A stretch of 64,000 bases of DNA from contig CAYTZB010000004.1 of NCBI GenBank assembly GCA_964442455.1, positions 7,425 to 71,424 on the forward strand. The letters run 5' to 3'. The first letter of the stretch is position 1; every line of letters starts with the position of its first letter. The position numbers were made by a program, and so were the translations under genes. Positions 7,372-64,000 of the stretch are shown one piece after another. The notes below the pieces were generated by a model. That model saw only the letters and a program-made list of their open reading frames with translations. It searched no databases and was not told the origin of the DNA. The DNA comes from an uncultured Gammaproteobacteria bacterium (GTDB taxonomy: Bacteria; Patescibacteriota; Microgenomatia; UBA8517; JACQJR01).

Positions 7372-8742
7372 ATGAAATTTACCATACCATCGTTTGTTCA
7401 GGAACTGGTTGAACGATTTCAAAAGAAAGGTTTTGAGATTTATATCGTTGGAGGGGCAGTGAGGGATTTGTTAATGGAAAGAGACGTGACGGATTGGGAC
7501 TTCACCACTAATGCCACTCCTGAACAAATTCTTGAACTCTTTGCAGGGGCATTTTATGACAATAAGTTTGGGACTGTTGGTATTCCGGTAGAAAAAACTC
7601 AAATTTTAGAGGTCACCACTTTTAGAAGAGAGGAAACATATTCTGACAGACGCCATCCGGATAAAGTGGTTTGGGGAGAAAGTTTGGAAGAAGATCTAGC
7701 ACGACGTGATTTCACGATTAATGCTATGGCATTTAAGATTGCTCATGGACTACAGACTACGGTAGACATCCAAATCATTGATCCGTTTCATGGTCAAGAA
7801 GATTTAAAGAATAAGCTCATTCGTGCAGTTGGTAATCCACAAGAACGATTCAGAGAGGATGCACTCCGGATGATGCGAGCAGTTCGGATTGCATCAGAAC
7901 TGGGATTTGTGATTGAAGAGAAAACTTTTGAAGCGATAAAAATGAATGTTCCCCTTATCCGCAAGATTTCAGCGGAACGCATACGAGATGAACTATTTAA
8001 ATTGCTTGCAAGCCCTTATCAGTACGAGGGAATTGTCATGTTGCGAAATGCAGGACTTCTTGTCGAAATTCTCCCAGAAGTTGAGGAGGCATTTGATATA
8101 CCACAAAAAAGTCCAAAACGCCATCATGTTGTTGATGTAGGGACACACCTTTTGTATTCCTTAAGGTATTGTCCTTCAAAAGACTCACTCGTCCGACTTG
8201 CAGCTCTCCTTCACGATATTGGCAAACCTCAAACGTTTAAAAAAGATGAAAAAACAGGAGTCATCACTTTTTATAACCATGAAGTTGTTGGGGGCAGAAT
8301 TGCGAATCAAGTTGCTAACCGGCTGCGGCTCTCAAAGAAAGAAATTGATAAATTATTCAGGCTCGTGCGTTGGCATCTCTTTACGGTTGACGAGCGACAA
8401 ACGGATTCAGCCCTTCGGCGGTTCATAAGAAATGTAGGAGTCGAAAATTTGGAAGATATTTTAGCAGTGAGGACTGGGGATCGTCTCGGCGGTGGTGCAA
8501 CCGAAACCTCCTGGCGACTTGAACTATTTAAAAAAAGACTTCTTGAAGTCCAAAAACAACCATTCTCTGTTCAAGATTTAAAAATTAACGGCAACGATGT
8601 CATGAAAGAATTGGGTATTACATCCGGACCAAAAGTAGGGCAGGTCTTAAACGCACTTTTTGCCGAAGTTGAAGAAGGAAAACTAAAAAACAATCGCGAA
8701 GATTTACTTAAGAGAATGGAAGAGATTGGTAAAGAGTTTTAG
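7372..8742 (+). CDS. cca: CCA-adding tRNA nucleotidyltransferase / polyA polymerase family with HD domain
   Basis: The GGAVRD nucleotidyltransferase motif, the HD motif (LHDIGKP) and the C-terminal tRNA-binding region are present. Confidence 0.8.
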   Translation: MKFTIPSFVQELVERFQKKGFEIYIVGGAVRDLLMERDVTDWDFTTNATPEQILELFAGAFYDNKFGTVGIPVEKTQILEVTTFRREETYSDRRHPDKVVWGESLEEDLARRDFTINAMAFKIAHGLQTTVDIQIIDPFHGQEDLKNKLIRAVGNPQERFREDALRMMRAVRIASELGFVIEEKTFEAIKMNVPLIRKISAERIRDELFKLLASPYQYEGIVMLRNAGLLVEILPEVEEAFDIPQKSPKRHHVVDVGTHLLYSLRYCPSKDSLVRLAALLHDIGKPQTFKKDEKTGVITFYNHEVVGGRIANQVANRLRLSKKEIDKLFRLVRWHLFTVDERQTDSALRRFIRNVGVENLEDILAVRTGDRLGGGATETSWRLELFKKRLLEVQKQPFSVQDLKINGNDVMKELGITSGPKVGQVLNALFAEVEEGKLKNNREDLLKRMEEIGKEF

Positions 8743-50631: not shown

Positions 50632-51008
50632 AAATGAGCGCCGAAGCGCCCAAACACCTTACGCGTTTCGGTCAATACCTATGAAGGCCGAAACCTCACC
50701 TCCATCGTGGAACAGTATATCAAATACACAATAGATACGCAAGGGGAAAGACGAGGTTTTACTTTTTCTTAACTCTCCAGAGTTTGAGGTAGAGGATGTC
50801 AAGCACTCCGACCGTATTTAAAATAAGAAGTGCCACAAACCAATTCCGCTGATTATTGCGTGCGGCATGCCAGAGAGCTAACCCTTTCCAAACTATGCTC
50901 CACACTGTAATAACAAGGAGAATAAGAGGATGCAATCGGGATAAGTTTAAGATTAAACCCAACAGCTCCATATACCTCTCAAGTATACCATGCTTAAATG
51001 GAAGAACA

Positions 51009-51317: not shown

Positions 51318-51552
51318 GATGTTAAGTTAATCAGCTAACCAGTTGACTAGTTAATTAAGCTAATTTGGAATTATACGGGGAAATAGAATAGAAAGCAAGA
51401 TCAATTATTTGAAAAGGGAACTTTTGAGAATGGATTATGACGAATAGTTAAAGAAGAGACAACCCTCGTTCCTCTTTTTACCACAAGACGAAGATCACCA
51501 CTGCCCATATTTATCCCTGACTCAACAAAAATTGGTCCACCCAATAAACGGG

Positions 51553-52755
51553 CTATGCCACTATTTTTGAAATAACACCTGCGCCGACGGTTTTTCCACC
51601 TTCGCGGATAGCAAAACGCAAGCCCTCCTCAGCGGCAACTGGTTGAATGAGCTTAACACCCATCTTCGCATTATCCCCAGGCATAACCATTTCAACGCCT
51701 TCAGGGAGTGTTACGTCACCAGTCACATCAGTTGTCCTAATATAGAACTGAGGCTTATAGCCTGAGAAGAACGGCGTGTGTCGTCCACCCTCCTCCTTGG
51801 TCAAAATATACACCTCGGCTTCAAACTCCGTATGAGGAGTAATGGTTCCTGGTTTGGCGAGTACTTGACCGCGCTCAACATCTTCCTTTTCAATACCCCG
51901 AAGCAAAATTCCCACATTGTCTCCTGCTTGTCCCTCATCAAGAGTCTTTCGGAACATTTCAACACCCGTAACTATTGTTTTCTTTGCATCGCGCCTAATA
52001 CCTACAATTTCAATTTCTTCTCCCGTCTTTACCTTTCCTCGCTCAATTCGACCAGTAACTACTGTTCCCCGACCTTTAATCGCGAACACATCCTCAATTG
52101 GCATTAAGAATGGTTTATCAATATCCCTCTCAGGAGTTGGGATAAACTCATCAACTGCCTTCACGAGTTCTAAAATCTGCTTTTCCGCCTCGGCATCACC
52201 CTCGTACGCTTTCAATGCTGAACCTCGGATAATTGGGGTTTCTTTGCCTGGATATTGATATTTATTTAAAAGCTCTCGTACCTCTTCCTCAACCAAGTCA
52301 ATAAGCCCTGGATCATCAACCATATCAACCTTGTTCAAGAAAACAACCAAGGCCGGAACGTTAACTTGGCGGGCCAAAAGAACGTGCTCTCGTGTTTGGG
52401 GCATTGGACCGTCTGCTGCTGAAACGACAAGAATAGCACCATCCATTTGTGCAGCACCGGTAATCATGTTTTTTATATAGTCAGCATGCCCAGGAGCATC
52501 AATGTGGGCATAATGGCGCTTTTCTGTTTCGTATTCAACATGTGTAATGTTAATCGTTACTCCTCGAGCCTTCTCTTCAGGGGCATTATCGATGTCAGTG
52601 AAATCAAGAGCCTTAGTAGCACTTCCCGGTTGCTTTGAGAGCACTTTGGTAATCGCAGCCGTTAAGGTTGTTTTTCCGTGGTCCACGTGACCAATTGTCC
52701 CAATGTTAATGTGGGGCTTGGTCCGCTCGAATTTCTTTTTTGCTTCTTCAGCCAT
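51553..52755 (-). CDS. tuf: elongation factor Tu
   Basis: [14 protein letters not shown] and NKxD motifs are present. Length is 400 aa. Confidence 0.97.
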
Positions 52756-52947: not shown

Positions 52948-55092
52948 TTAACTTTTCTTTGCTGCAATTATTTTCTCGGTAATGTTTGCGGGAACTTCCT
53001 GATAGTGAGAAGGTTCAACATAGGCATTCGCACGTCCTTGCGTCAATGAACGAAGTGTTGTGGTATACCCTGAAACTTCAGCAAGTGGGACGTATCCAAG
53101 AATCACTCGATAATGTCCTCGTGTTTCCGTTCCTACGATTTGTGCTCGCCGAGATGATAAATCGCCAATAACATCTCCTAAAAACTGTTCTGGTGTCGTT
53201 ACTTCAAACTTCATAATCGGCTCGAGTAACACCATCCCCGCTCGCTTTGTTGCATCTTGAACTGCCATTGAACCTGCGATTTTGAATGCAATTTCCGATG
53301 AGTCAACTTCGTGGTAGGTACCATCATACACGGACACTGAAAGATCAGTCACCGGATAGCCAGCAAGAATTCCATTTGAGAGTGCCTCTTGTACGCCTTT
53401 ACCAATTGCCGGAATAAACTCACCTGGAATTGCCCCACCTTTTATTTTATTAATAAACTCGTACCCCTCACCTCTACCTTTGGGTTCCACCCGCACAAAA
53501 CAGTGACCGTATTGTCCATGACCACCGGTTTGACGAATATACCTTCCCTCCCCCTCTGCCACTTTGGTTACTGTTTCTTTATATGCAACCTGTGGTGCAC
53601 CAGTTGTCGCGTCAACGCTAAACTCCCGTCGCATTCTGTCAACCAAAATTTCAAGGTGAAGCTCTCCCATTCCAGAGATAATCGTTTGACCTGTTTCCTG
53701 ATTGGTTTTTATCCTGAACGTCGGGTCTTCCTCGGAAAGCTTACCGAGTGCTTCTCCTAATTTTTCCTGATCTGCTTTCGTCTTTGGTTCAATGGCAAGC
53801 GATATAACCGGCTCAGGAAAGGAGATTGATTCAAGCACAATCGGATGAGCAGAATCAGTTACCGTATCGCCGGTAACCGTCTCCCGAAATCCCACTCCAG
53901 CAACAATCTCGCCACTATACGCTTCTTCAATAAGTTCTCGTTGATTTGCATGCATTAAAACCAGCCGCCCCACTCGTTCTCGTCTATTTTTTGTGGTGTT
54001 GAATACTTCCTGTCCTGCGCGCAATTTTCCCGAATAAATTCGAAGCCACACCAGTCGTCCAACATGAGGGTCGGTCTGCACCTTAAAAGCAAGTGCCGAG
54101 AGAGGTTCTTCATTCCCCACTGCGCGAGTCTCTTCTTGCCCGTTCCATACTCCTTTAACTGGGGGAAGATCAATTGGCGAAGGGAGATATTCAACAACTG
54201 CATCCAAAAGCGGTTGTACTCCCTTGTTGCGCAGTGATGAACCACAAAAGGTAGGAAAGAGTTCGGTTTTAATCGTAGCCTTCCTGAGTGCAGTTTTTAG
54301 TTCGGTAATATCTGGCTCAACCCCACCAACATACTTTTCAAGAAGCTGTTCATCAGTTTCTGATATAGCCTCAATCGTTTGGGAGCGGTATTTCTCAACC
54401 ATAGCTTTCAAATCTTCCGGTACTTCTTCTTCACGATAAGTACCTCCTGTTTCATCTCCTTCCCAAATAAGTGCTTTTCTCTCCAACACGAGGACAATCC
54501 CACGAAATTGTTGCTCGCTCCCAATAGGAACTGCAAGAACTACCGGTTTGCTACCCAAACGGTCACTAATTGCTGCAAGTGTTCCTTCGAAGTCTGCACC
54601 AAGTTTATCCATTTTGTTGATAAAAATGATGCGCGGCACATGATACTTATCAGCTTGTCGCCACACCGTTTCCGTCTGTGATTGTACTGTCTCTTCGGCA
54701 TCAAGCACGGTTATTCCGCCATCAAGAACCCGAAGTGAGCGTTCGACTTCAGCGGTAAAATCAACGTGTCCCGGAGTATCGATAATATTGACGCGATATT
54801 CACCCTTCGGAACACACGACTCCTGCTTTAATTCCCAAAAGGCGGTGATTGCAGCCGATACAATCGTAATTCCTCGCTCTCGCTCTTGCTCCATCCAGTC
54901 AGTAACGGTAGTTCCTTCATCAACTGATCCAAGTTTGTAGGTTCGTCCGGTATAAAAGAGGATTCGTTCTGTTGTCGTAGTTTTTCCCGCGTCAATGTGC
55001 GCAATAATTCCAATATTGCGGATTTTGTCGAGTGCAACCTCGCGATTCTTGGTAACAACTTGAGATAGTGATGCTTTCTGTCCTGTTGCCAT
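52948..55092 (-). CDS. fusA: elongation factor G
   Basis: The G-domain motifs (AHIDAGKTT), EF-G domains II-V and length of 714 aa all fit EF-G. Confidence 0.97.
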   Translation of the reverse strand: MATGQKASLSQVVTKNREVALDKIRNIGIIAHIDAGKTTTTERILFYTGRTYKLGSVDEGTTVTDWMEQERERGITIVSAAITAFWELKQESCVPKGEYRVNIIDTPGHVDFTAEVERSLRVLDGGITVLDAEETVQSQTETVWRQADKYHVPRIIFINKMDKLGADFEGTLAAISDRLGSKPVVLAVPIGSEQQFRGIVLVLERKALIWEGDETGGTYREEEVPEDLKAMVEKYRSQTIEAISETDEQLLEKYVGGVEPDITELKTALRKATIKTELFPTFCGSSLRNKGVQPLLDAVVEYLPSPIDLPPVKGVWNGQEETRAVGNEEPLSALAFKVQTDPHVGRLVWLRIYSGKLRAGQEVFNTTKNRRERVGRLVLMHANQRELIEEAYSGEIVAGVGFRETVTGDTVTDSAHPIVLESISFPEPVISLAIEPKTKADQEKLGEALGKLSEEDPTFRIKTNQETGQTIISGMGELHLEILVDRMRREFSVDATTGAPQVAYKETVTKVAEGEGRYIRQTGGHGQYGHCFVRVEPKGRGEGYEFINKIKGGAIPGEFIPAIGKGVQEALSNGILAGYPVTDLSVSVYDGTYHEVDSSEIAFKIAGSMAVQDATKRAGMVLLEPIMKFEVTTPEQFLGDVIGDLSSRRAQIVGTETRGHYRVILGYVPLAEVSGYTTTLRSLTQGRANAYVEPSHYQEVPANITEKIIAAKKS

Positions 55093-55184
55093 AAAAGCTA
55101 TTTTAAAATTCTGCCTATGGCCTCATTTTGAGGCCTACCGGCAGCTTGTATGAAGTGCTTTTGAAACCACTTCATAGACTTAAT

Positions 55185-55215
55185 GTAACACAAAAACGGA
55201 AGCGCTTTCGCTTCC
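55185..55215 (-). terminator. Rho-independent terminator (minus strand) downstream of the 175-aa ORF and upstream of fusA
   Basis: A perfect 7-bp stem GGAAGCG-aaa-CGCTTCC is followed on the minus strand by GTTTTTGTGTT. Confidence 0.45.
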
Positions 55216-55330
55216 TTAAACCTAATTTTACACGATAACCATAGATTATGCAACGAATGAATACAAGAGGAACTTACTGGTGGTTCACTTTGTGCTTACA
55301 CCTTAGAGGTGTAAGCTTGAAATATATTGA

Positions 55331-55858
55331 TTAGGCCATTAAATCTCTTACTGGAACTACTCTCTGATTCTCTGGATTTCCTTTTACTCTCTCAATGAAT
55401 TCAGCAGGAGTTAATGCTCTAATTCCTCGTAACTCTAAAAACTTCCTAGCACCTGGTAAATCAACAATTGCAAGTATGAGCTCTTCTATTGCTTTTTGGG
55501 GGATTCTTCCTTTGTCAAATGGGAGTAACCTATCCTGATTTAAGACAATTGTGGCATATGCCTCATCTTTTTTGTCTGCTGGGAAAATTATTGCTGCTTT
55601 GGAAAAAGAAGAAAGTTCTCCTTCTCCTACGAGCCAAAACTCAGCATCACGAGCTTCCATTATTCTCTGGGTCTCTTTTGCCAACGGTGTAAACGCATCC
55701 TGAGTCTCACTTTCTGCTAAAACATGGATTATCTCACTCGCATAATCGATAAGCAGCTGGATCATCTGATGTAGCTGTTCGACTCTACCAGGAGTTAGGG
55801 GAATACCAACTAATCCCCTCATTTTACCGTGTCTTATAGACAAAAATTCGTTTCCCAT
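55331..55858 (-). CDS. hypothetical protein (175 aa), island ORF D
   Basis: It is an intact ORF with no recognisable family, followed by a hairpin at 55294-55316 and the terminator. Confidence 0.45.
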   Translation of the reverse strand: MGNEFLSIRHGKMRGLVGIPLTPGRVEQLHQMIQLLIDYASEIIHVLAESETQDAFTPLAKETQRIMEARDAEFWLVGEGELSSFSKAAIIFPADKKDEAYATIVLNQDRLLPFDKGRIPQKAIEELILAIVDLPGARKFLELRGIRALTPAEFIERVKGNPENQRVVPVRDLMA

Positions 55859-55916
55859 TGTATAACTTATTCGAGATTATACACCCACCCTGGTTGCCAT
55901 TGCCAGGGAGAAGTAA

Positions 55917-56273
55917 CTACTTGTTGTAGAGGAATATTTTTAATCCAATGTTCGAGTCCATACTGTGTTGCGCTTTTAGTGGTTCCACCTCTTCCGGGGG
56001 ATGACGCGTTAAATCACCATAATCACACTCTCGAAGTCGTGCATCCTTAATTATGGGAATATTTCTTCCTTCAAAAGCAATTTTTGCGGTAGTATACGAT
56101 CTCTGTAGATCGGAGCAAAAGATAGCATCAAATTGTTCATTTTTATGCCGTTCACCTAGCTGCTTCGCTTGCTCTTTCCCAAGTTCTGATAACTCAACAT
56201 CAAAGTGCCCCGAAGAATGTTTGCTCTCGTTATCAAGCGACGTCGCGTGAGGTTCAAAAACTATAGTAACCAT
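55917..56273 (-). CDS. histidine-phosphatase-fold (SixA/PGAM-like) protein, truncated and degenerate (118 aa; PHA in place of RHG)
   Basis: The N-terminal beta-strand plus EPHATS aligns to the RHG motif, and CSDLQRSYTTAKI aligns to the SPLxRAxQTAxI block. The C-terminal half of the fold is missing. Confidence 0.4.
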   Translation of the reverse strand: MVTIVFEPHATSLDNESKHSSGHFDVELSELGKEQAKQLGERHKNEQFDAIFCSDLQRSYTTAKIAFEGRNIPIIKDARLRECDYGDLTRHPPEEVEPLKAQHSMDSNIGLKIFLYNK

Positions 56274-56523
56274 CAGAAGATTTTATCTGCTCTTCCATAA
56301 ATTTACCATAAATTCTTATGGTAAGTCGTTGAATAATTTGATAAAATAAGGTACGCCTGCCACATTGCAGGCTCTTTTTGCAAAGGGGCTTTCTTTGACA
56401 TTCTTGCACTGTGGCATTGAACAAGAGGGCTGCCTTTTAAACCTCTTGTTTTTTGTGGCAGGAAGCAAGAAATTGTTTTTATTAATAATTTTTTGAATTT
56501 ATTTGTTTCGATGTATCGATACA

Positions 56524-56928
56524 TTAAAACATAACTGTGGGATTGTTAAGTGTTACGCGGAAGTCACTTTTACCTACCCTCAGTCTCTCTAGATCATAGG
56601 GAAATCCAGATAGGGCGTAATACTCTTCACCTTGTTTGTTCACCTTTCTCCTTAATTCATGTAACACACGACGGCCATCATGAGTTGTAAGAATGGCTGA
56701 TGGAACAAAACCTTCTGTGCTTTGATCCACACGGAATAAGGCGAGGAGTACTTGTTGTTCTTGTTCTATCTCCTTTAACAACACACCATCTAACCTTCCA
56801 TCACTAATCAAATTTACTACTCCTTCGAAGACTAAACCATTTGTCTTGTCTTCAACGCGAATGACCCCTGAAAAAGTTGATGTAATCTCTTCTCTGTTCT
56901 TTGTCCCATTACCATTTTTTTCCCTCAT
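56524..56928 (-). CDS. hypothetical protein (134 aa), island ORF B
   Basis: It is an intact ORF. Its stop overlaps the start of a doubtful 73-aa ORF (TAATG). Confidence 0.4.
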   Translation of the reverse strand: MREKNGNGTKNREEITSTFSGVIRVEDKTNGLVFEGVVNLISDGRLDGVLLKEIEQEQQVLLALFRVDQSTEGFVPSAILTTHDGRRVLHELRRKVNKQGEEYYALSGFPYDLERLRVGKSDFRVTLNNPTVMF

Positions 56929-56973
56929 ATCTTACTCCTATCTCTTTTCTTTGCAATAGCTGGCTAAGAAACT

Positions 56974-57693
56974 CTAAGAGCTTTGGGTAATAATCCGTAC
57001 CGGTTGGAATAGTAGTGCATTCCTAAGTGCTGTTGCAACAAATTCGTCAGGGCTAGGAAGTGACAAACTACCGTATTCTGTCTCAATTACTCTCGTGTTC
57101 GTTGCAAAGTCTGTTCGTAATCTTCCAGGCCCAAGATGCAAATGTTCTTCAGTTGGCGTAATTGTTACCAGCTCATATTCTACCTCTCCAACTCTTAATA
57201 AAAGTTGTGCAAGAGGAGACCTATTTTCTTCAAAAACAAATATCTGTCTTGCATGTTCGAATGAACTACCGCTCAGCATAATAGGAGGAGAAGCATCTTG
57301 CGTTATTAAGACTCCACCTCTTAAATCAAGAATAGTGAACATATTATCTTTTAATCCGTTTTTGGATGTATCCGAAATGACTTCAACTCCTACTATTTTT
57401 CCATTTGATCGACTAATTACTAAGTCTGTTGTTGTTCTTTCGTGTTCAGATTGATGATAAAATGAAACTACATCCTCTCTTTCTCTTTGTACCTTTTTAA
57501 CATCATATCGTATTCCCCTTATTTGCGCCCCTTTGCTTCTATCTGTGAGAAGTTTATGATTTTGGTTAACATAATCGAGATGTTGTGAAAATCTTGTGCG
57601 AATCGCTTGGGGAATACGTGCAATCTGTGCTTGGGTAAGAGGAAAATATACTAATTGATTCTCAGGAGAGAGAGTACTTTCTGGTCTTGTCAT
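56974..57693 (-). CDS. hypothetical protein (239 aa), island ORF A, starting 10 nt after the rpsG stop
   Basis: It is an intact ORF with no recognisable family. No terminator separates it from rpsG. Confidence 0.5.
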   Translation of the reverse strand: MTRPESTLSPENQLVYFPLTQAQIARIPQAIRTRFSQHLDYVNQNHKLLTDRSKGAQIRGIRYDVKKVQREREDVVSFYHQSEHERTTTDLVISRSNGKIVGVEVISDTSKNGLKDNMFTILDLRGGVLITQDASPPIMLSGSSFEHARQIFVFEENRSPLAQLLLRVGEVEYELVTITPTEEHLHLGPGRLRTDFATNTRVIETEYGSLSLPSPDEFVATALRNALLFQPVRIITQSS

Positions 57694-57702
57694 AGAGGAT
57701 GA

Positions 57703-58182
57703 TTACCACCTAAAATGACTGAATGCACGGTTTGCTTCTGCGACTCTTTCGACTTCTTTTTTCTTTGCAATCGCACCACCCTGACCTTTGGAAGCATCCA
57801 AAATTTCAGCAGTAAGTTTGTCGGTAAACGTATGGTAATCTTTATTTGGGCGTTTTTGCGCCGCAAGAATCAACCAGCGAATGGCCAACGACTCGCGTCG
57901 CGGGCCCCGCACGGGAATGGGCACCTGGTATGCTGCACCCCCAACTCTGCGTGGCCGGACTTCCATTGTCGGTTTTATCTGCTCAACAGCAGACAAGAAT
58001 ACTTTGAGGGGATCCTCTCCTGTCTCCTTCTGCATCGCCTCAAAGGCACGGTATACAAGACCTGCGGCTACCGACTTCTTACCGTCGTGCATAATTCGGC
58101 TGATGAGCTTGGCCACAAGTTTGTGGCCATAAACCGGATCTGGTGCAATAGTTCGCGCTGGTACTGGTCCTCGTCTTGGCAT
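57703..58182 (-). CDS. rpsG: 30S ribosomal protein S7
   Basis: It belongs to the S7 family at 159 aa. Confidence 0.95.
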   Translation of the reverse strand: MPRRGPVPARTIAPDPVYGHKLVAKLISRIMHDGKKSVAAGLVYRAFEAMQKETGEDPLKVFLSAVEQIKPTMEVRPRRVGGAAYQVPIPVRGPRRESLAIRWLILAAQKRPNKDYHTFTDKLTAEILDASKGQGGAIAKKKEVERVAEANRAFSHFRW

Positions 58183-58291: not shown

Positions 58292-58783
58292 TTAAGAAGC
58301 ACTAGCTTCCTGTATTACTGCTGCAGCTCTAGGCGCTCCCCCTCCCTCCGGGCCAGAGGTCCCTCCGGGCCGGCGGCCCTCACGTCGTGTCCCATATTGT
58401 GAACGGGAAGTCTTTCTTCCCACGACACCAGTGGTATCGAATTTCCCTCGTACAATATGATACTTAACCCCTGGAAGATCTCTTACACGACCGCCTCGAA
58501 CCAAAACTATCGAATGCTCTGCCAACTCGTGTCCTTCTCCTGGGATATAGGCAGTAACCTCTTGTTTATTCGAAAGTCGCACACGGGCAACTTTACGCAG
58601 CGCTGAATTCGGTTTCTTGGGGGTCATCGTGCGGACAGCCAATACCACTCCCCGTTTAAAGGGGCTCGGTAGTTGGGAAAACCGTCGCCGTCTCGCATTG
58701 AACCAACGCCGCAACGCCGTACTTCGGCTCTTTCCATGCACTTTTCTCCTTCCCTTTCTGGTGAGTTGATGAATCGTAGGCAT
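58292..58783 (-). CDS. rpsL: 30S ribosomal protein S12 with an N-terminal ~12-aa insertion and a GC-rich ~30-aa C-terminal tail
   Basis: The S12 core is present ([24 protein letters not shown]). The tail [24 protein letters not shown] is encoded by the direct repeat ccctccgggcc at 58321-58375. Confidence 0.95.
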
Positions 58784-58941: not shown

Positions 58942-61900
58942 TTAACCTCGGGACAATTGTTGAGAGGGAAGTGCTGCACGCTCCGGAGTCACGGGAATAA
59001 GGCGGCCAATAATGACATTTTCTTTCAAGCCCAACAATTTATCTTCCTTGCCAAGAAGTGCTGCTTCGGTCAACACCTTGGTCGTCTCTTGGAATGAGGC
59101 AGCAGAGAGCCACGATGCGGTAAAGAGGGACGCTTTGGTAATACCCAAAATAACCACCTGGGCGGTTGCTGGTTCACCTCCTGCCGCAAGCACTCGCTCA
59201 TTCTCTTCTGTAAACCACGCTTTATCAACCAATTCCCGTGGCAACAGGATGGTATCTCCAGGGCTAATCACCTGCACTTTATCACTCATTTTCCTGACGA
59301 TGACCTCGAAATGTTTGTCGTTAATAGGAATACCTTGACTCTCATATACCGCCTGGATTTCAGAGATAAGATACTCTTGAGAAGCAAGCAGCCCCCGAAT
59401 ATTCAGTACTTCTTTGACATCAAGCATACCTGACGCAAGCTGTGTACCCGCCGCAATGAGGTCGCCATCGGACAACCGCAGTTGGGCAGTCTTGGGAATA
59501 ATATACTCCCGTTCTTCCGGCGGTTTGACATCAACACTGCGTACTCTTACTTTCCAAGAATCTTCTCGCTCAACAACTTCAACTTTGCCTGAAATTTCAG
59601 AAAGCGGTGAGACCACCTTTGGAATACGAGTTTCAAAGAGTTCCTCGACTCGGGGCAATCCTTTGGTCACATCAAGTCCCACAATTCCACCGGTATGTTT
59701 CACTCTCATGGTCAACTGTGTGCCTGGTTCACCGATAGATTGAGCCGCAACCACCCCTACCGGGGTACCCACTTCCACCCGCTTTTTGGTGGCCAAATCC
59801 CATCCGTAGCAGGCAGCACACATACCATATCGCGCAATGCACGTGAGAGGGGAGCGAACTAACACTTCATCTATCTTTTCCTCCTCAAGGTGAGTGAGCA
59901 CCTCTTCTGTTATTTCTTCTCCCGCCCGCACTATAAAGTGTTTCCCATTCTTAAGAGGAATATTAACTGCTGCCGTCCTTCCTAAGAGCCGACCCGTAAA
60001 CGAAACTGACCTATCCTTTCTCCGCATGACTACCCCTTCGCTCGTCCCACAATCTTCTCCCCTTACAATCATATCGTGTGCGACATCGACAAGTCGGCGT
60101 GTCAGATACCCAGCATCAGCAGTCTTGAGTGCCTGATCGGTCAATCCTTTACGTGATCCACGAGCGGTGGTGACGTACTCAAAGATAGAGAGACCTTCCT
60201 TAAAGTTTGATTTGGTCGGCAGTTCTACCACTCTTCCAAGGGGATCAACTACCAATCCCCTCATTGCCGCAATTTGTTTAACCTGCTCTCGTGAAGCACG
60301 ACCAACCCCTGCTTCAATAATAACCTTAATAGGATTCGCGGGCGGGAACACCTCCCACGTTCTGTCTGCTAATTCCTCTGTCGCCTCAATCCACACTTCT
60401 TGTGTTAATCGTCTTTTTTCATCTTCAGTGATTAAACCCGATCGGTAGTTTTCTTCAATTTCTGCAACTTGGCTATTTGCCCCCTCTATCATCTTATCTT
60501 TCTCGGGAAGAATGACTGCATCGGTAATACCAAACGAGAGACCGGATACTGTTCCGGCAGCGAATCCAATATTTTTGATGTTATCAATCATTTCTAAGAT
60601 TTCCGCCCTTGACCCCCGTGCAAAGACTGTGTTAAAGAGACGTTTGAGTACCCCTGCCGAAACCGGCTCATTCACAAATTCCACCCACCCTGGCAAGAGT
60701 TCATTGAAGAGAATACGACCAACTGTAGTGGTTATCTTTTTACCCTCAAGAAGAACGTCTATCTCTTGGCGAACTCCAAGCTTGCCTGTTTGGTATATAT
60801 AGACCGCTTCGCCAGCATCACACAGGACTTCCCGACGAGCTTGTTCGGTGTTAACACTCGTTAAGTAATATACGCCGAGCGCCATCTCTTTTGTTGCAGG
60901 AATTGTAATAGGAGAGCCATCAGCGGGCTTAAGGAGATTGTGCTCCGGCAACATGAGAGAGCGGGCTTCCTCTTTTGCCTTTTCAGCTAGAGGTACATGC
61001 ACTGCCATTTGGTCTCCATCAAAATCCGCATTGTATCCTGCACACACACACGGATGAATACGAATGGCGTTTCCTTCAATAAGAACCGGATAAAATGCCT
61101 GAATACCCAATTTGTGGAGTGTCGGCGCTCGGTTCAGCAACACCGGATGATCCCGCGAAACCTCCTCCAAAATATCAAACACTTCGGGGAGCCGTTTCTC
61201 AAGCATACTCTTTGCACTTTTAACATTCGGTGCAATACCCTGCGTAATCATTTCTCGCAACACAAACGGTTTAAACAGTTCTAGGGCCATCTCCTTTGGA
61301 AGCCCGCACTGATGGAGCGAAAGTTCTGGTCCTACCACGATGACAGACCGACCTGAATAGTCAACTCTTTTCCCAAGTAAATTCTGGCGAAATCTTCCCT
61401 GTTTGCCTCGCAGCATATCCGAAAGTGAACGGAGAGGCTGGCGTGTTCTTCCGCGACGCATCGTTTGGCGCTGGCTTGCATCAATGAGCGCGTCGACTGC
61501 TTCCTGGAGCATCCGCTTTTCATTACGCAAAATAATCTCCGGAGCCCCGAGCTCCAGTAAATGACGCAGTCGGTTATTCCTGTTGATAATACGTCGGTAC
61601 AAATCATTCAAGTCACTCGTGGCAAATCTACCTCCTGAGAGCTGCACCATGGGCCGCAGATCGGGAGGAAGCACCGGCAATACCCGCAGCACAAGCCATG
61701 AAGGGGCACTTCCGGCTTTGCGCATTCCTTCAACTAAGCGCAGCCGTTGTGCAAGTTTTATTGCACGGCCTCCCATTGCTTCGTTGACTTGAGAACGAAG
61801 CTGAGCTGCTAACTCCTCTAAGTTGATACTCTCAAGAAGATCGGCTATAGCCTCAGCACCCATTTTTGCCACAAAGAATGACGCGACCTCGTGGTCAAAT

Positions 61901-62658
61901 AACTCTTGATATCCCTCCTCTGATAAAAAGGTACGAGGAGCTACTACTCGAACCAACGCCACAAGTCGGTCAAACAGTTCACGAGTCTGTGCAGCTGCCG
62001 CAGCTGCTGTCTCGGTCACTGTGGCTTTGCGCTTGCGCGCTTCAAGTTCCAATTCCTCAACTGCTAAACTCAGTTGTTCTTTTGCTTTAATTTCTTTTTT
62101 CTTTTGGGCAACCAACGTGTTAAACTCGCGCTCTACAGCAGCAATACGGGAGCTTAATTGCTCCTGCTGCCGGTGTTCAAGTGACTGCCACTCCTTCTCA
62201 AGGCGGGTAATGGCAACTTTGCGCTCCTTCTCGTCAACTGAGAGAACTACATACCGTGCCAGGTATATCACTTGCTCAATTGTTTTAGAAGGTAAATCAA
62301 GAAGGGCTGAAAGCTTAGAAGGGGTACTTTTGAAAAACCACACATGCGCCACAGGAGAGGATAAGGTAATGTGACCCATGCGTTCTCGGCGCACCCGTGA
62401 TTGCGTCACTTCAACACCACATTTATCACACACCACCCCACGATATCGTATTCTTTTATACTTCCCGCAGTAACATTCCCAATCTTTTGTGGGTCCAAAA
62501 ATACGCTCGTCAAACAACCCATTTTTCTCGGGCTTGAGCGTCCGGTAGTTTATCGTCTCGGGTTTCGTCACCTCGCCACGGGACCACAGCTTAACCTGCT
62601 CGGGGGAGGCAACCTTAATAACCAATGATGTAAAATCAGCAAGATTCTTGACTTCCAT
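58942..62658 (-). CDS. rpoC: DNA-directed RNA polymerase subunit beta' (start at MEVKNLADF, 1 nt after the rpoB stop)
   Basis: The zinc-binding motif [23 protein letters not shown], the NADFDGD catalytic motif and the full-length beta' architecture are present. Confidence 0.97.
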
Positions 62659-62659
62659 A

Positions 62660-64000
62660 TTATTTTGTTTCCTCAACTTCCATCGTTCCCTCGGGTGCAG
62701 CCAACTCGCTTGAGTCTGCAGCAACTGTTGCACCCGACGCAGCGGCGAGTTCTTCGGCAAGGCGAGCTGTCTCCTCTTCCGCAACAACTTCTGTCGCAAC
62801 TATTTGCCCTTTCGGCTCAACAACCAGTCCAAGCGCATTGAGTTCACGCATGAGTACCTTAAATGAGTCGGGAATAGTTGCCTCAGGAATATCCGTCCCC
62901 TTGACAATTGCCTCAAATGCTCTCGCGCGACCCACCACATCGTCAGATTTGATGGTAATCATTTCCTGTAAGGTATGGGCTGCACGATGTGCCTCGAGCG
63001 CCCACACTTCCATCTCACCAAGTCGTTGTCCTCCCATCTGCGCTTTACCACCCAAGGGCTGTTGTGTGACGAGCGAATATGGGCCGGTTGAACGCGCGTG
63101 CATTTTGTCCTCAACCATATGAATAAGTTTCATAATATAACCTACACCCACCACCGTTTCTTGCTCAAGGGGTTGTCCAGTTCGTCCATCAAACAGTCGT
63201 GTTTTCCCAGACACAGGAAGCCCTGCAACTTTTAATTTCTCTTCAATAAGAGAGGTGGGAATACGCTCAAACACAGGAATCGCGGCTACCTCGTTCTGTT
63301 TTACAAGCGCCCATCCCAAATGTGCCTCAAGTAGTTGCCCCAAATTCATACGGGCAAGAACAGACAGGGGAGAAATAATGATATCAATTGGTGTCCCATC
63401 AGAGAGGTAGGGCATGTCGGAGGCCGGCACAATTTTTGAAATGACTCCTTTATTTCCATGGCGTCCTGCAAGTTTGTCCCCTACAGTGACTTTGCGAATT
63501 TGTGCAACTTTTATAATGATTTTCTTGAATGTCCCTGGCTCCAGCTCATCTCCCTTCTCCCTATCTAAAATTGTCAATCCTATCACCGTTCCTCGCTCTC
63601 CGTGAGGCATACGCAGTGACGTATCCCGTACTTCGCGCGCTTTCTCACCAAAGATGGCGCGTAGGAGCCGTTCCTCGGGGGTGAGTTCTGTCTCTCCTTT
63701 GGGTTGAATTTTCCCAACCAAAATGTCATTTGGTCCCACTTCGCTTCCCACTATCACAATGCCGTCCTCTCCCAAATTCGCCAGATCTGTCTCGGCGACG
63801 TTGGGAATATCGCGTGTCAACTCCTCAGGACCAAGTTTTGTCTCAACCACCTCTGCCTCATACTCCTCAATATGAATAGAAGTCAGTACATCCTCCTTGA
63901 CTAACCTGTCAGAAATCACGATTGCGTCTTCGTACCCCAATCCTTCAAATGAACAGTACGCAATCAGTAAATTCTGCCCGAGAGCAAGTTCACCATTTCC
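62660..64000 (-). CDS. rpoB: DNA-directed RNA polymerase subunit beta, C-terminal part (5'-truncated by the window end)
   Basis: The rpoB C-terminal conserved regions are present. The reading frame stays open to position 64000. Confidence 0.95.

Follow-up and report, generated by a model that had tools for sequence, protein, structure and literature searches.

The genes between rpsG and fusA in a groundwater Microgenomates bacterium: probable cargo of a hypervariable spacer in the str operon

Background

The gene for EFG I normally sits in the str operon (PMC3150367). In the canonical arrangement rpsL, rpsG, fusA and tuf lie in this order on one strand, and rpsG and fusA are adjacent with no terminator between them. 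The DNA examined here keeps the order and the strand, but the rpsG stop and the fusA start are separated by 2,610 nucleotides (nt), exactly positions 55093-57702, and this spacer contains a terminator-like hairpin and a promoter-like motif. It comes from contig CAYTZB010000004.1 of assembly GCA_964442455.1, positions 7,425 to 71,424, and the whole stretch of 64,000 nt is called the window below; positions are counted from its first letter. An initial annotation, made from the letters of the window, described four open reading frames (ORFs) of 239, 134, 118 and 175 aa in the spacer, here ORF239, ORF134, ORF118 and ORF175. What are these genes, and do they belong to the translation apparatus? 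The island that they form in this groundwater member of the Microgenomates, within the candidate phyla radiation (CPR), is real but fairly ordinary and is not a new part of the translation machinery. We think it probable that the segment from about 55254 to 57701 is the current content of a hypervariable accessory-gene slot and not a conserved functional unit of the translation apparatus. The result is thus mainly corrective, since an apparent break in a near-universal operon becomes one instance of a lineage-wide variable spacer.

Results and discussion

The rpsG-fusA spacer is hypervariable in Microgenomates

Scans based on RpsG similarity gave 22 genome loci and 80 metagenome loci, mostly Microgenomates or Woesebacteria-like, which were reduced to 77 RpsG groups by de-duplication. 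The spacers of the rpoC-rpsL-rpsG-fusA-tuf block in these groups were as follows.

rpsG to fusA: longer than 300 nt in 25 of 56 groups; longer than 1 kb in 14 of 56; maximum 4.3 kb
rpsL to rpsG (control): longer than 300 nt in 0 of 69 groups
rpoC to rpsL (control): longer than 300 nt in 2 of 62 groups
fusA to tuf (control): longer than 300 nt in 5 of 33 groups

Ten further RpsG groups had no fusA within at least 1.5 kb. The rpsG-fusA spacer is therefore the one hypervariable spacer of this block in Microgenomates. The initial annotation had called the junction normally invariant, which holds broadly across bacteria (PMC3150367) and fails in Microgenomates. The cargo of the slot is heterogeneous and lies on both strands; when the window's four ORFs were pooled with 43 slot ORFs from relatives, 33 of the 47 were singletons. 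Among the larger cargo genes of relatives are those for a DUF559/REase-type protein, a GNAT protein, radical SAM proteins, a Trans_reg_C regulator, a LytR_C protein and a sugar epimerase. At one locus (L037, 2471-2640) the conserved element that precedes fusA (described below) is followed by a mutated fusA start (ATAGTAGCAGAAGTAGCAAAG...), whose frame ends after about 15 codons. An unrelated membrane-protein gene comes next, and a rearrangement at this junction appears to have displaced fusA.

The closest comparison is with a sister species (L035, from Hainich groundwater, and L004) whose RpsG, RpoC and FusA are 88-89%, 95% and 96% identical to those of the window. Its spacer is 487 nt long and holds one unrelated ORF of 112 aa. 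Homology between the two DNAs ends at 57702 and is found again from 55236 on, at the terminator hairpin, and the variable segment therefore extends from about 55237/55254 to 57701. The slot differs from that of the sister species by replacement and not by simple insertion. Neither the 112-aa ORF nor any of the 43 slot ORFs of relatives, considered as diverged homologues of the island ORFs, was similar to them. One of the explanations first offered, a lineage-specific insertion, is borne out to the extent that no other species-level population shares this content; the sister has other content in the same slot.

In these respects the slot resembles flexible genomic islets, which have fixed core anchors (here rpsG and the fusA-proximal module) and non-homologous, lineage-specific cargo that is replaced between close relatives; as in such islets, there are no dedicated mobility genes in the slot. 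It differs from them in that it lies inside a normally single operon and not between operons, and in that its first cargo gene is translationally juxtaposed to a ribosomal protein gene. Islets of this kind, hypervariable hot spots in intergenic DNA, include multigene insertions that separate concatenated translation operons in other lineages (PMC6735719).

Layout of the gap and validity of the junctions

The features of the gap and its flanks, all on the minus strand, are given in the order of transcription.

58942-62799, minus: rpoC (gene call)
58292-58783, minus: rpsL, S12 (gene call)
57703-58182, minus: rpsG, S7, the upstream anchor of the slot (gene call; homology to L035/L004 ends at 57702)
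56974-57693, minus: ORF239, an orphan coding gene (coding score 0.238)
56524-56928, minus: ORF134, of a tiny all-beta family of about 130 aa (AGGAG Shine-Dalgarno sequence 8 nt upstream)
56274-56523, minus: A+T-rich, hairpin-rich spacer of 250 nt between ORF134 and the phosphatase relic (fold z -3.95)
55867-56273, minus: histidine phosphatase pseudogene (ORF118 as called is 55917-56273)
55331-55858, minus: ORF175, of a rare family (coding score 0.30)
55294-55316, minus: 10-bp hairpin GCUUACACCU-CUA-AGGUGUAAGC without a U-run, directly past the ORF175 stop (folding)
55186-55253, minus: conserved fusA-proximal module, the downstream boundary of the slot (terminator scan, covariance model, L035 homology)
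55093-55185, minus: species-specific fusA leader with two hairpins, 55176-55149 and 55144-55111 (not conserved in L035)
52948-55092, minus: fusA, EF-G (elongation factor G), the downstream anchor (gene call; L035 FusA 96% identical)
51553-52755, minus: tuf, after fusA (gene call)

The four same-strand ORFs are thus laid out as described initially, except that the phosphatase fragment, which had been placed fourth, is the third ORF of 118 aa. No terminator lies between rpsG and ORF239, whose ATG is separated from the rpsG stop by 9 nt (TAA tcatcctct ATG), and a terminator-like hairpin, GGAAGCGAAAGCGCTTCC followed by GTTTTTGTGT at 55215-55187, does precede fusA. The non-coding DNA is rich in hairpins, as had been claimed, with fold z scores of -3.95 for 56274-56523 and -5.08 for 55093-55330; none of 200 shuffles folded as well.

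A gap of this kind could arise from a chimeric assembly at 55093 and/or 57702, and the initial annotation had named this as a ground for rejecting the island. There is next to no chance of it, unless one systematic error affected five assemblies alike. The same junctions are found in five independent assemblies that are 99.9-100% identical to the window: ORF239 is present on Logan contigs from SRR12113420, SRR12113430 and SRR12113384, and ORF175 on a contig from SRR12113422 and on contig JACPFY010000011.1 of a metagenome-assembled genome (GCA_016182755.1, 'Candidatus Microgenomates bacterium'). Three of the contigs (L001, L029 and L030) span rpsG through fusA.

The lower GC content of the island also stood up, the ORFs having 38-41.5% against 51-53% for rpsG and rpsL and 46% for fusA and tuf. 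These values are still inside the range of the 28 long genes of the window (mean 44.3%, standard deviation 3.2, minimum 36.9), and the island, although low in GC, does not stand out in this genome. The same 28 genes were used to train a codon log-likelihood model, which gave in-frame ratios of 0.24 for ORF239, 0.24 for ORF134, 0.15 for ORF118 and 0.30 for ORF175, as compared to 0.284 +/- 0.065 for the host genes, and all five alternative frames of the island ORFs were negative. Since the in-frame scores are positive and those of the other frames negative, the ORFs look like real, host-adapted coding sequence.

A second strain, 99.95% identical, differs from the window at six sites over 13.3 kb. 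All three single-nucleotide polymorphisms (SNPs) in the island are nonsynonymous (F119L and G126R in ORF239 and E99G in ORF175; positions 57339, 57318 and 55563), and all three in tuf are synonymous (52660, 52492 and 52489). This contrast is suggestive of weak constraint on the island, though the numbers are too small for a test. The only repeat seen, an 18/20 direct repeat with the minus-strand sequence GC[T/G]ATTGCAAAGAAAA[G/A]AGA, brackets ORF239, with one copy within the 3' end of rpsG (57755-57774) and the other just past the ORF239 stop (56941-56960). It may be due to chance or may be the trace of an insertion event.

A conserved module precedes fusA

The downstream boundary of the slot is formed by a module that is 85% identical to positions 885-936 of L035. 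In the window it consists of a promoter-like motif, TTGCAT (55253-55248) and TAAAAT (55230-55225) with a 17-nt spacer, and a palindromic hairpin, GGAAGCG-AAAG-CGCTTCC (55215-55198), followed by a U-run to about 55187. When the 130 nt upstream of fusA were listed for 73 loci, a recurrent arrangement was seen: TTGATT-N17-TAAAAT, then GGAAGC-N4-GCTTCC, then GGTTTTTTGTG(C)GATAAT, with the fusA ATG 7-20 nt further on. This type of hairpin with its T-run occurs in 23 of 58 distinct fusA-upstream regions, so that a GC-rich hairpin with a U-run has a conserved position upstream of fusA. Eight of these sequences were used to build a covariance model (R1), with which both strands of 788 kb of loci were searched. 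There were 14 matches with an expectation value (E) below 0.1; each is on the strand of fusA and lies immediately ahead of fusA or, in L037, of the truncated fusA start. The match in the window is at 55186-55234 (27.7 bits, E 0.0045). Copies upstream of fusA include the following.

L039, 1209-1255
L044, 7419-7465
L005, 7241-7288
L054, 7154-7202
L094, 2250-2298
L048, 6514-6562

Other loci carry it as well. Rfam has no family for the window island or for nine related loci.

For streptococci, candidate attenuators have been put forward in the rpsG-fusA interval (PMC2965389). The Microgenomates module is like such fusA-leader attenuators in that a hairpin and a U-run just upstream of fusA would uncouple or modulate transcription of fusA-tuf relative to rpsL-rpsG. 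It differs in having a signature of its own, (TTGATT-N17-TAAAAT)-GGAAGC-N4-GCTTCC-GGTTTTTTGTG, with the promoter-like motif ahead of the hairpin, and in that an antiterminator alternative is seen only in some relatives. These relatives (L009/L060, L066/L067, L085 and L014/L071) have three-segment variants, GAAGC / GCTTC / GAAGCGG and a T-run, which can form two mutually exclusive hairpins, as classical attenuators do; the window does not have this variant. In six other loci (L038, L047, L012, L013, L021 and L055) the arms are swapped, giving GCTTCC-loop-GGAAGCGG-TTTTTT. The variants would fit structural selection on the hairpin and, in some lineages, an attenuator. In L007 (about 8505-8524) and L063 (about 1660-1676) only 6-9 nt separate the end of a TAAAAT -10-like box from the fusA ATG, and the fusA mRNA of these two would be leaderless or nearly so.

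The phosphatase gene is a relic

ORF118 matches PF00300 with an E of 2.5e-24 and a score of 86.5 bits (cut-off 21.7), but the match covers only positions 6-95 of the 194 in the profile. It has more than 1,300 homologues, and nearly all among the matches listed are 175-180 aa long and 70-75% identical to its residues 1 to about 105. The remainder of the gene was located by tblastn with intact members. Family residues 1-106 are encoded at 56273-55956, and residues 144-177 (ATQYGLEHWIKNIPLQQVVTSPWQWQPGWVYNLE and a stop) at 55971-55870, where the frame is a different one; the original stop is at about 55869-55867. Family residues from about 105 to 143 (PFPNGESY...IIGHR) are absent from ORF118, including the second catalytic His of GHRAT, so that the fold with its GHR motif is incomplete. 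Since about 40 codons were lost out of frame together with this His, ORF118 is a pseudogene of a phosphatase of about 177 aa, and the deletion is seen in all assemblies. The initial annotation was therefore right to suspect a decaying gene, although part of its argument does not hold. It took the change of the catalytic RHG to PHA as the sign of decay, and of this the Ser-to-Pro replacement alone is peculiar to this genome, whose lack of the Arg and whose Ala are traits of the clade. All eight intact relatives compared read FE[S/A]H[G/A/S]T (FESHGT, FESHAT, FEAHGT) and have no Arg. ORF118 keeps the nucleophile, His9, and has Pro at the Arg position.

The relic shares its N-terminal half and the nucleophile His with branch 1 of the histidine phosphatase superfamily (PF00300; PhoE and cofactor-dependent phosphoglycerate mutase-like). 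Its clade differs from that branch in being short (about 177 aa) and in having Ser instead of the Arg of RHG, and the copy in the window is in addition about 40 codons shorter and frameshifted. Across this short-phosphatase clade (P0003-P0121; more than 1,300 clusters) Ser or Ala takes the place of the Arg, in the motif FESH[G/A]T. The deletion junction, GCGCAACAC, can be read as A-Q-H in the upstream flank and as (R)-A-T in the downstream flank, which fits a microhomology-mediated deletion as a possible mechanism. In both genomes of other Patescibacteria that were examined (L026, 5001-5543, and L028, 5001-5534) the intact phosphatase gene follows closely behind secA and has NUDIX or Ham1-type house-cleaning genes as neighbours. 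A 134-aa ORF upstream of the intact phosphatase of L028 was compared with ORF134 and is unrelated. The 250-nt spacer that precedes the relic (56274-56523) contains a GC hairpin, GCCTGC-N6-GCAGGC at 56355-56372, and terminator-like hits. It is neither a relic of the flanks of intact phosphatases (secA, NUDIX, cupin) nor a repeat found elsewhere; it has no Rfam family and no similarity to any fetched locus.

The three intact ORFs

Three of the ORFs were said at the outset to have no recognisable family, and indeed none of ORF239, ORF134 and ORF175 has a match in Pfam, NCBIfam, PHROGs or PADLOC; scans of each member of the ORF134 and ORF175 families gave no match, and searches of the PDB by sequence and profile with the island ORFs gave nothing below an E of 0.3.

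ORF239 is an orphan. Its sole match among 5.8 billion protein clusters is itself, no family, PDB, phage or viral sequence matched it, and its AlphaFold2 (AF2) single-sequence model is unusable, with a predicted local distance difference test score (pLDDT) of 34. The end of rpsG, AGG TGG TAA, provides a Shine-Dalgarno-like AGGTGG (57706-57711) 12 nt before its ATG. These are the conserved C-terminal Arg-Trp codons of rpsG, found also at about 511-516 of L035, and a first cargo ORF starts 5-13 nt past the rpsG stop in the window, L035/L004, L013/L075, L049 and L023.

An exhaustive HMMER search over 1.84 billion representatives with ORF134 found six small homologues of 126-149 aa (E from 1e-22 to 2e-4, 24-45% identity). 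The AF2 model made from their alignment has eight beta strands, a pLDDT of 88.5 and a predicted template modelling score of 0.78. Like small eight-stranded up-and-down beta-barrels (avidin-, lipocalin- and LolA/B-like and de novo designs), it is an antiparallel meander of eight strands and of similar size, but no significant structural or sequence similarity to members of the avidin/lipocalin type was found. The invariant residues of the family are Gly, Pro and Leu, which do not look like a catalytic set. Our working guess from the model is that ORF134 is a small beta-barrel that may bind a ligand. Its homologues adjoin Fic/ComM, an EncFtn-like gene, or secDF-CutA1 and the gene for the CCA-adding enzyme, and none of those found is in a str operon.

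ORF175, which has no family or PDB match, has two relatives only, a strain variant with 99% identity and P0123 with 44% identity over 99% of the length. P0123 is on a 1.8-kb contig (L031) and is also upstream of fusA, from which it is separated by an inverted yqeY, a 54-aa membrane ORF and a TAGAAT/hairpin/T-run module; the fusA start on this contig is 85% identical over 38 aa. Since P0123 also lies upstream of fusA, ORF175 is taken to be a fast-evolving, older resident of the neighbourhood. A perfect TATAAT precedes the ATG of both, by 17 nt in the window (55881-55876) and by 9 nt in L031 (about 304-309), and that of the window is formed by Tyr-Asn codons of the phosphatase relic.

Do these genes make translation factors?

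The initial annotation suggested that the ORFs could be novel ribosome- or translation-associated factors, which would be made in step with S12, S7 and EF-G. The tight coupling of ORF239 to rpsG, with its 9-nt spacer and no terminator, speaks for this, and so does the presence of the ORF175 family upstream of fusA in two lineages. However, the ORFs lack conservation both in the sister species and across about 100 related loci; ORF134 relatives are found at the unrelated loci named above, as are the intact phosphatases; other lineages fill the slot with GNAT, radical SAM, endonuclease and opposite-strand genes; and neither family nor PDB searches revealed similarity to a known translation factor. 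With cargo that is not kept even by the sister species, the suggestion is not supported, and we regard translation factors as very unlikely.

Still less likely is the second of its suggestions, that toxin-antitoxin or anti-phage defence cargo (or, by extension, a mobile element) has found a safe harbour in the str operon. Defence genes are indeed common in variable islets between core genes, a DUF559/REase-type gene occupies the slot of some relatives, and the GC content of the island is slightly under that of its neighbours. No ORF has a significant PADLOC match, though; the best is a partial one to ORF239 (E 0.012, 12 bits), and there is none for the others. PHROGs gave no meaningful matches and no phage or IMG/VR relatives were found. 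The codon usage is host-like, no integrase, transposase or recombinase gene is present, and no target duplications or inverted repeats bracket the island. The searches thus lend this suggestion no support.

Another explanation is that the island is mostly decaying DNA, in which all four ORFs are relics of earlier insertions and the intact frames have only recently been freed from selection. In favour of this, ORF118 is demonstrably dead, the three SNPs seen within the island all change an amino acid, no relative of ORF239 turned up anywhere searched and the sister species lacks all four ORFs. Stop-free ORFs of 239, 134 and 175 codons are, on the other hand, very unlikely by chance at 38-40% GC, and their in-frame codon scores equal those of host genes. 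Moreover, the ORF134 and ORF175 families are 24-45% identical over the full length, so their folds are under selection at least elsewhere, and the ORF134 model is confident. General decay is therefore unlikely, but among the explanations set against a variable slot it deserves serious weight.

A variable slot behind rpsG

We favour the explanation that the genes are exchangeable cargo of a variable slot. In the scheme that we propose, the Microgenomates str operon is split between rpsG and fusA, and fusA-tuf would be under its own promoter-like element and palindromic terminator hairpin. Since fusA carries its own module, DNA between the rpsG stop and the module would leave the expression of fusA-tuf undisturbed, and the spacer could therefore gain, lose and replace genes freely. 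ORF239 and ORF134 are most likely read-through passengers of the rpsL-rpsG mRNA, presumably co-transcribed with it; for ribosome binding, ORF239 would rely on the AGGTGG at the end of rpsG and ORF134 on its own AGGAG. Expression of these two at the level of ribosomal proteins, as proposed initially, is plausible from this arrangement. The structured 250-nt spacer at 56274-56523 may partly terminate transcription. The phosphatase gene was killed by an out-of-frame deletion of about 127 nt, and ORF175, which may have a -10 box of its own, would have been in the slot for longer. All transcription of the slot would then end at the conserved terminator hairpin (55215-55187), and the motif ahead of it is a putative promoter for fusA. 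As a working guess, the three intact ORFs encode dispensable cytoplasmic accessory proteins.

Several points weigh against this explanation. Three long intact ORFs with good coding statistics argue that some of the cargo is kept by selection, and ORF175, which is fusA-proximal in two lineages, may owe this position to a functional link and not to shared descent. The SNP contrast involves six sites only. Similarity of RpsG was the basis on which the survey loci were picked, and some of them are fragmentary metagenome contigs. In the set aligned to the covariance model the hairpin arms do not vary, and that set thus gives no covariation support; a palindrome just past a -10 box could equally be the operator of a protein such as a repressor, instead of or besides a terminator.

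A stronger version of the variable slot would be a dedicated Microgenomates expression slot, in which captured or newborn genes plug in behind rpsG by means of the AGGTGG and the strong rpsL promoter and are insulated from fusA by an undescribed leader, conserved in sequence and made up of promoter, palindrome and terminator, that regulates EF-G synthesis. We consider this improbable. If it were true, the products of ORF239, ORF134 and ORF175 would evolve fast, be made in large amounts and have a part in translation or in the episymbiotic lifestyle.

What the analysis adds is a quantitative demonstration that the str operon of Microgenomates is split at rpsG-fusA, with rapid turnover in this spacer and in no other. 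Annotation and synteny-based checks of binning may profit from it, as may ideas on where reduced CPR genomes tolerate new genes. The promoter/palindromic-hairpin module upstream of fusA is an unannotated candidate cis-regulator of EF-G and EF-Tu expression. We found no prior description in the literature of a str-operon hot spot or of a fusA-upstream module in CPR/Patescibacteria. The lineage-wide hot spot and the module are modestly new, and the lineage-specific accessory islet itself is a known kind of thing.

Other features of the str region

Three minor features of the same region were seen. The S12 protein of the window is 163 aa long and all relatives align to its residues 1-130 only; this species has a C-terminal extension of 33 aa rich in Gly, Pro, Ala and Arg, encoded by the 3' part of rpsL (58292-58390), and the GC content of rpsL, 53.5%, is the highest of the region. 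Gene calls on L029 place a 47-aa ORF between tuf and rpsJ, at about 51401-51544 of the window on the minus strand, and a 70-aa DUF5652 gene between rpsJ and rplC, at about 50759-50971, also on the minus strand.

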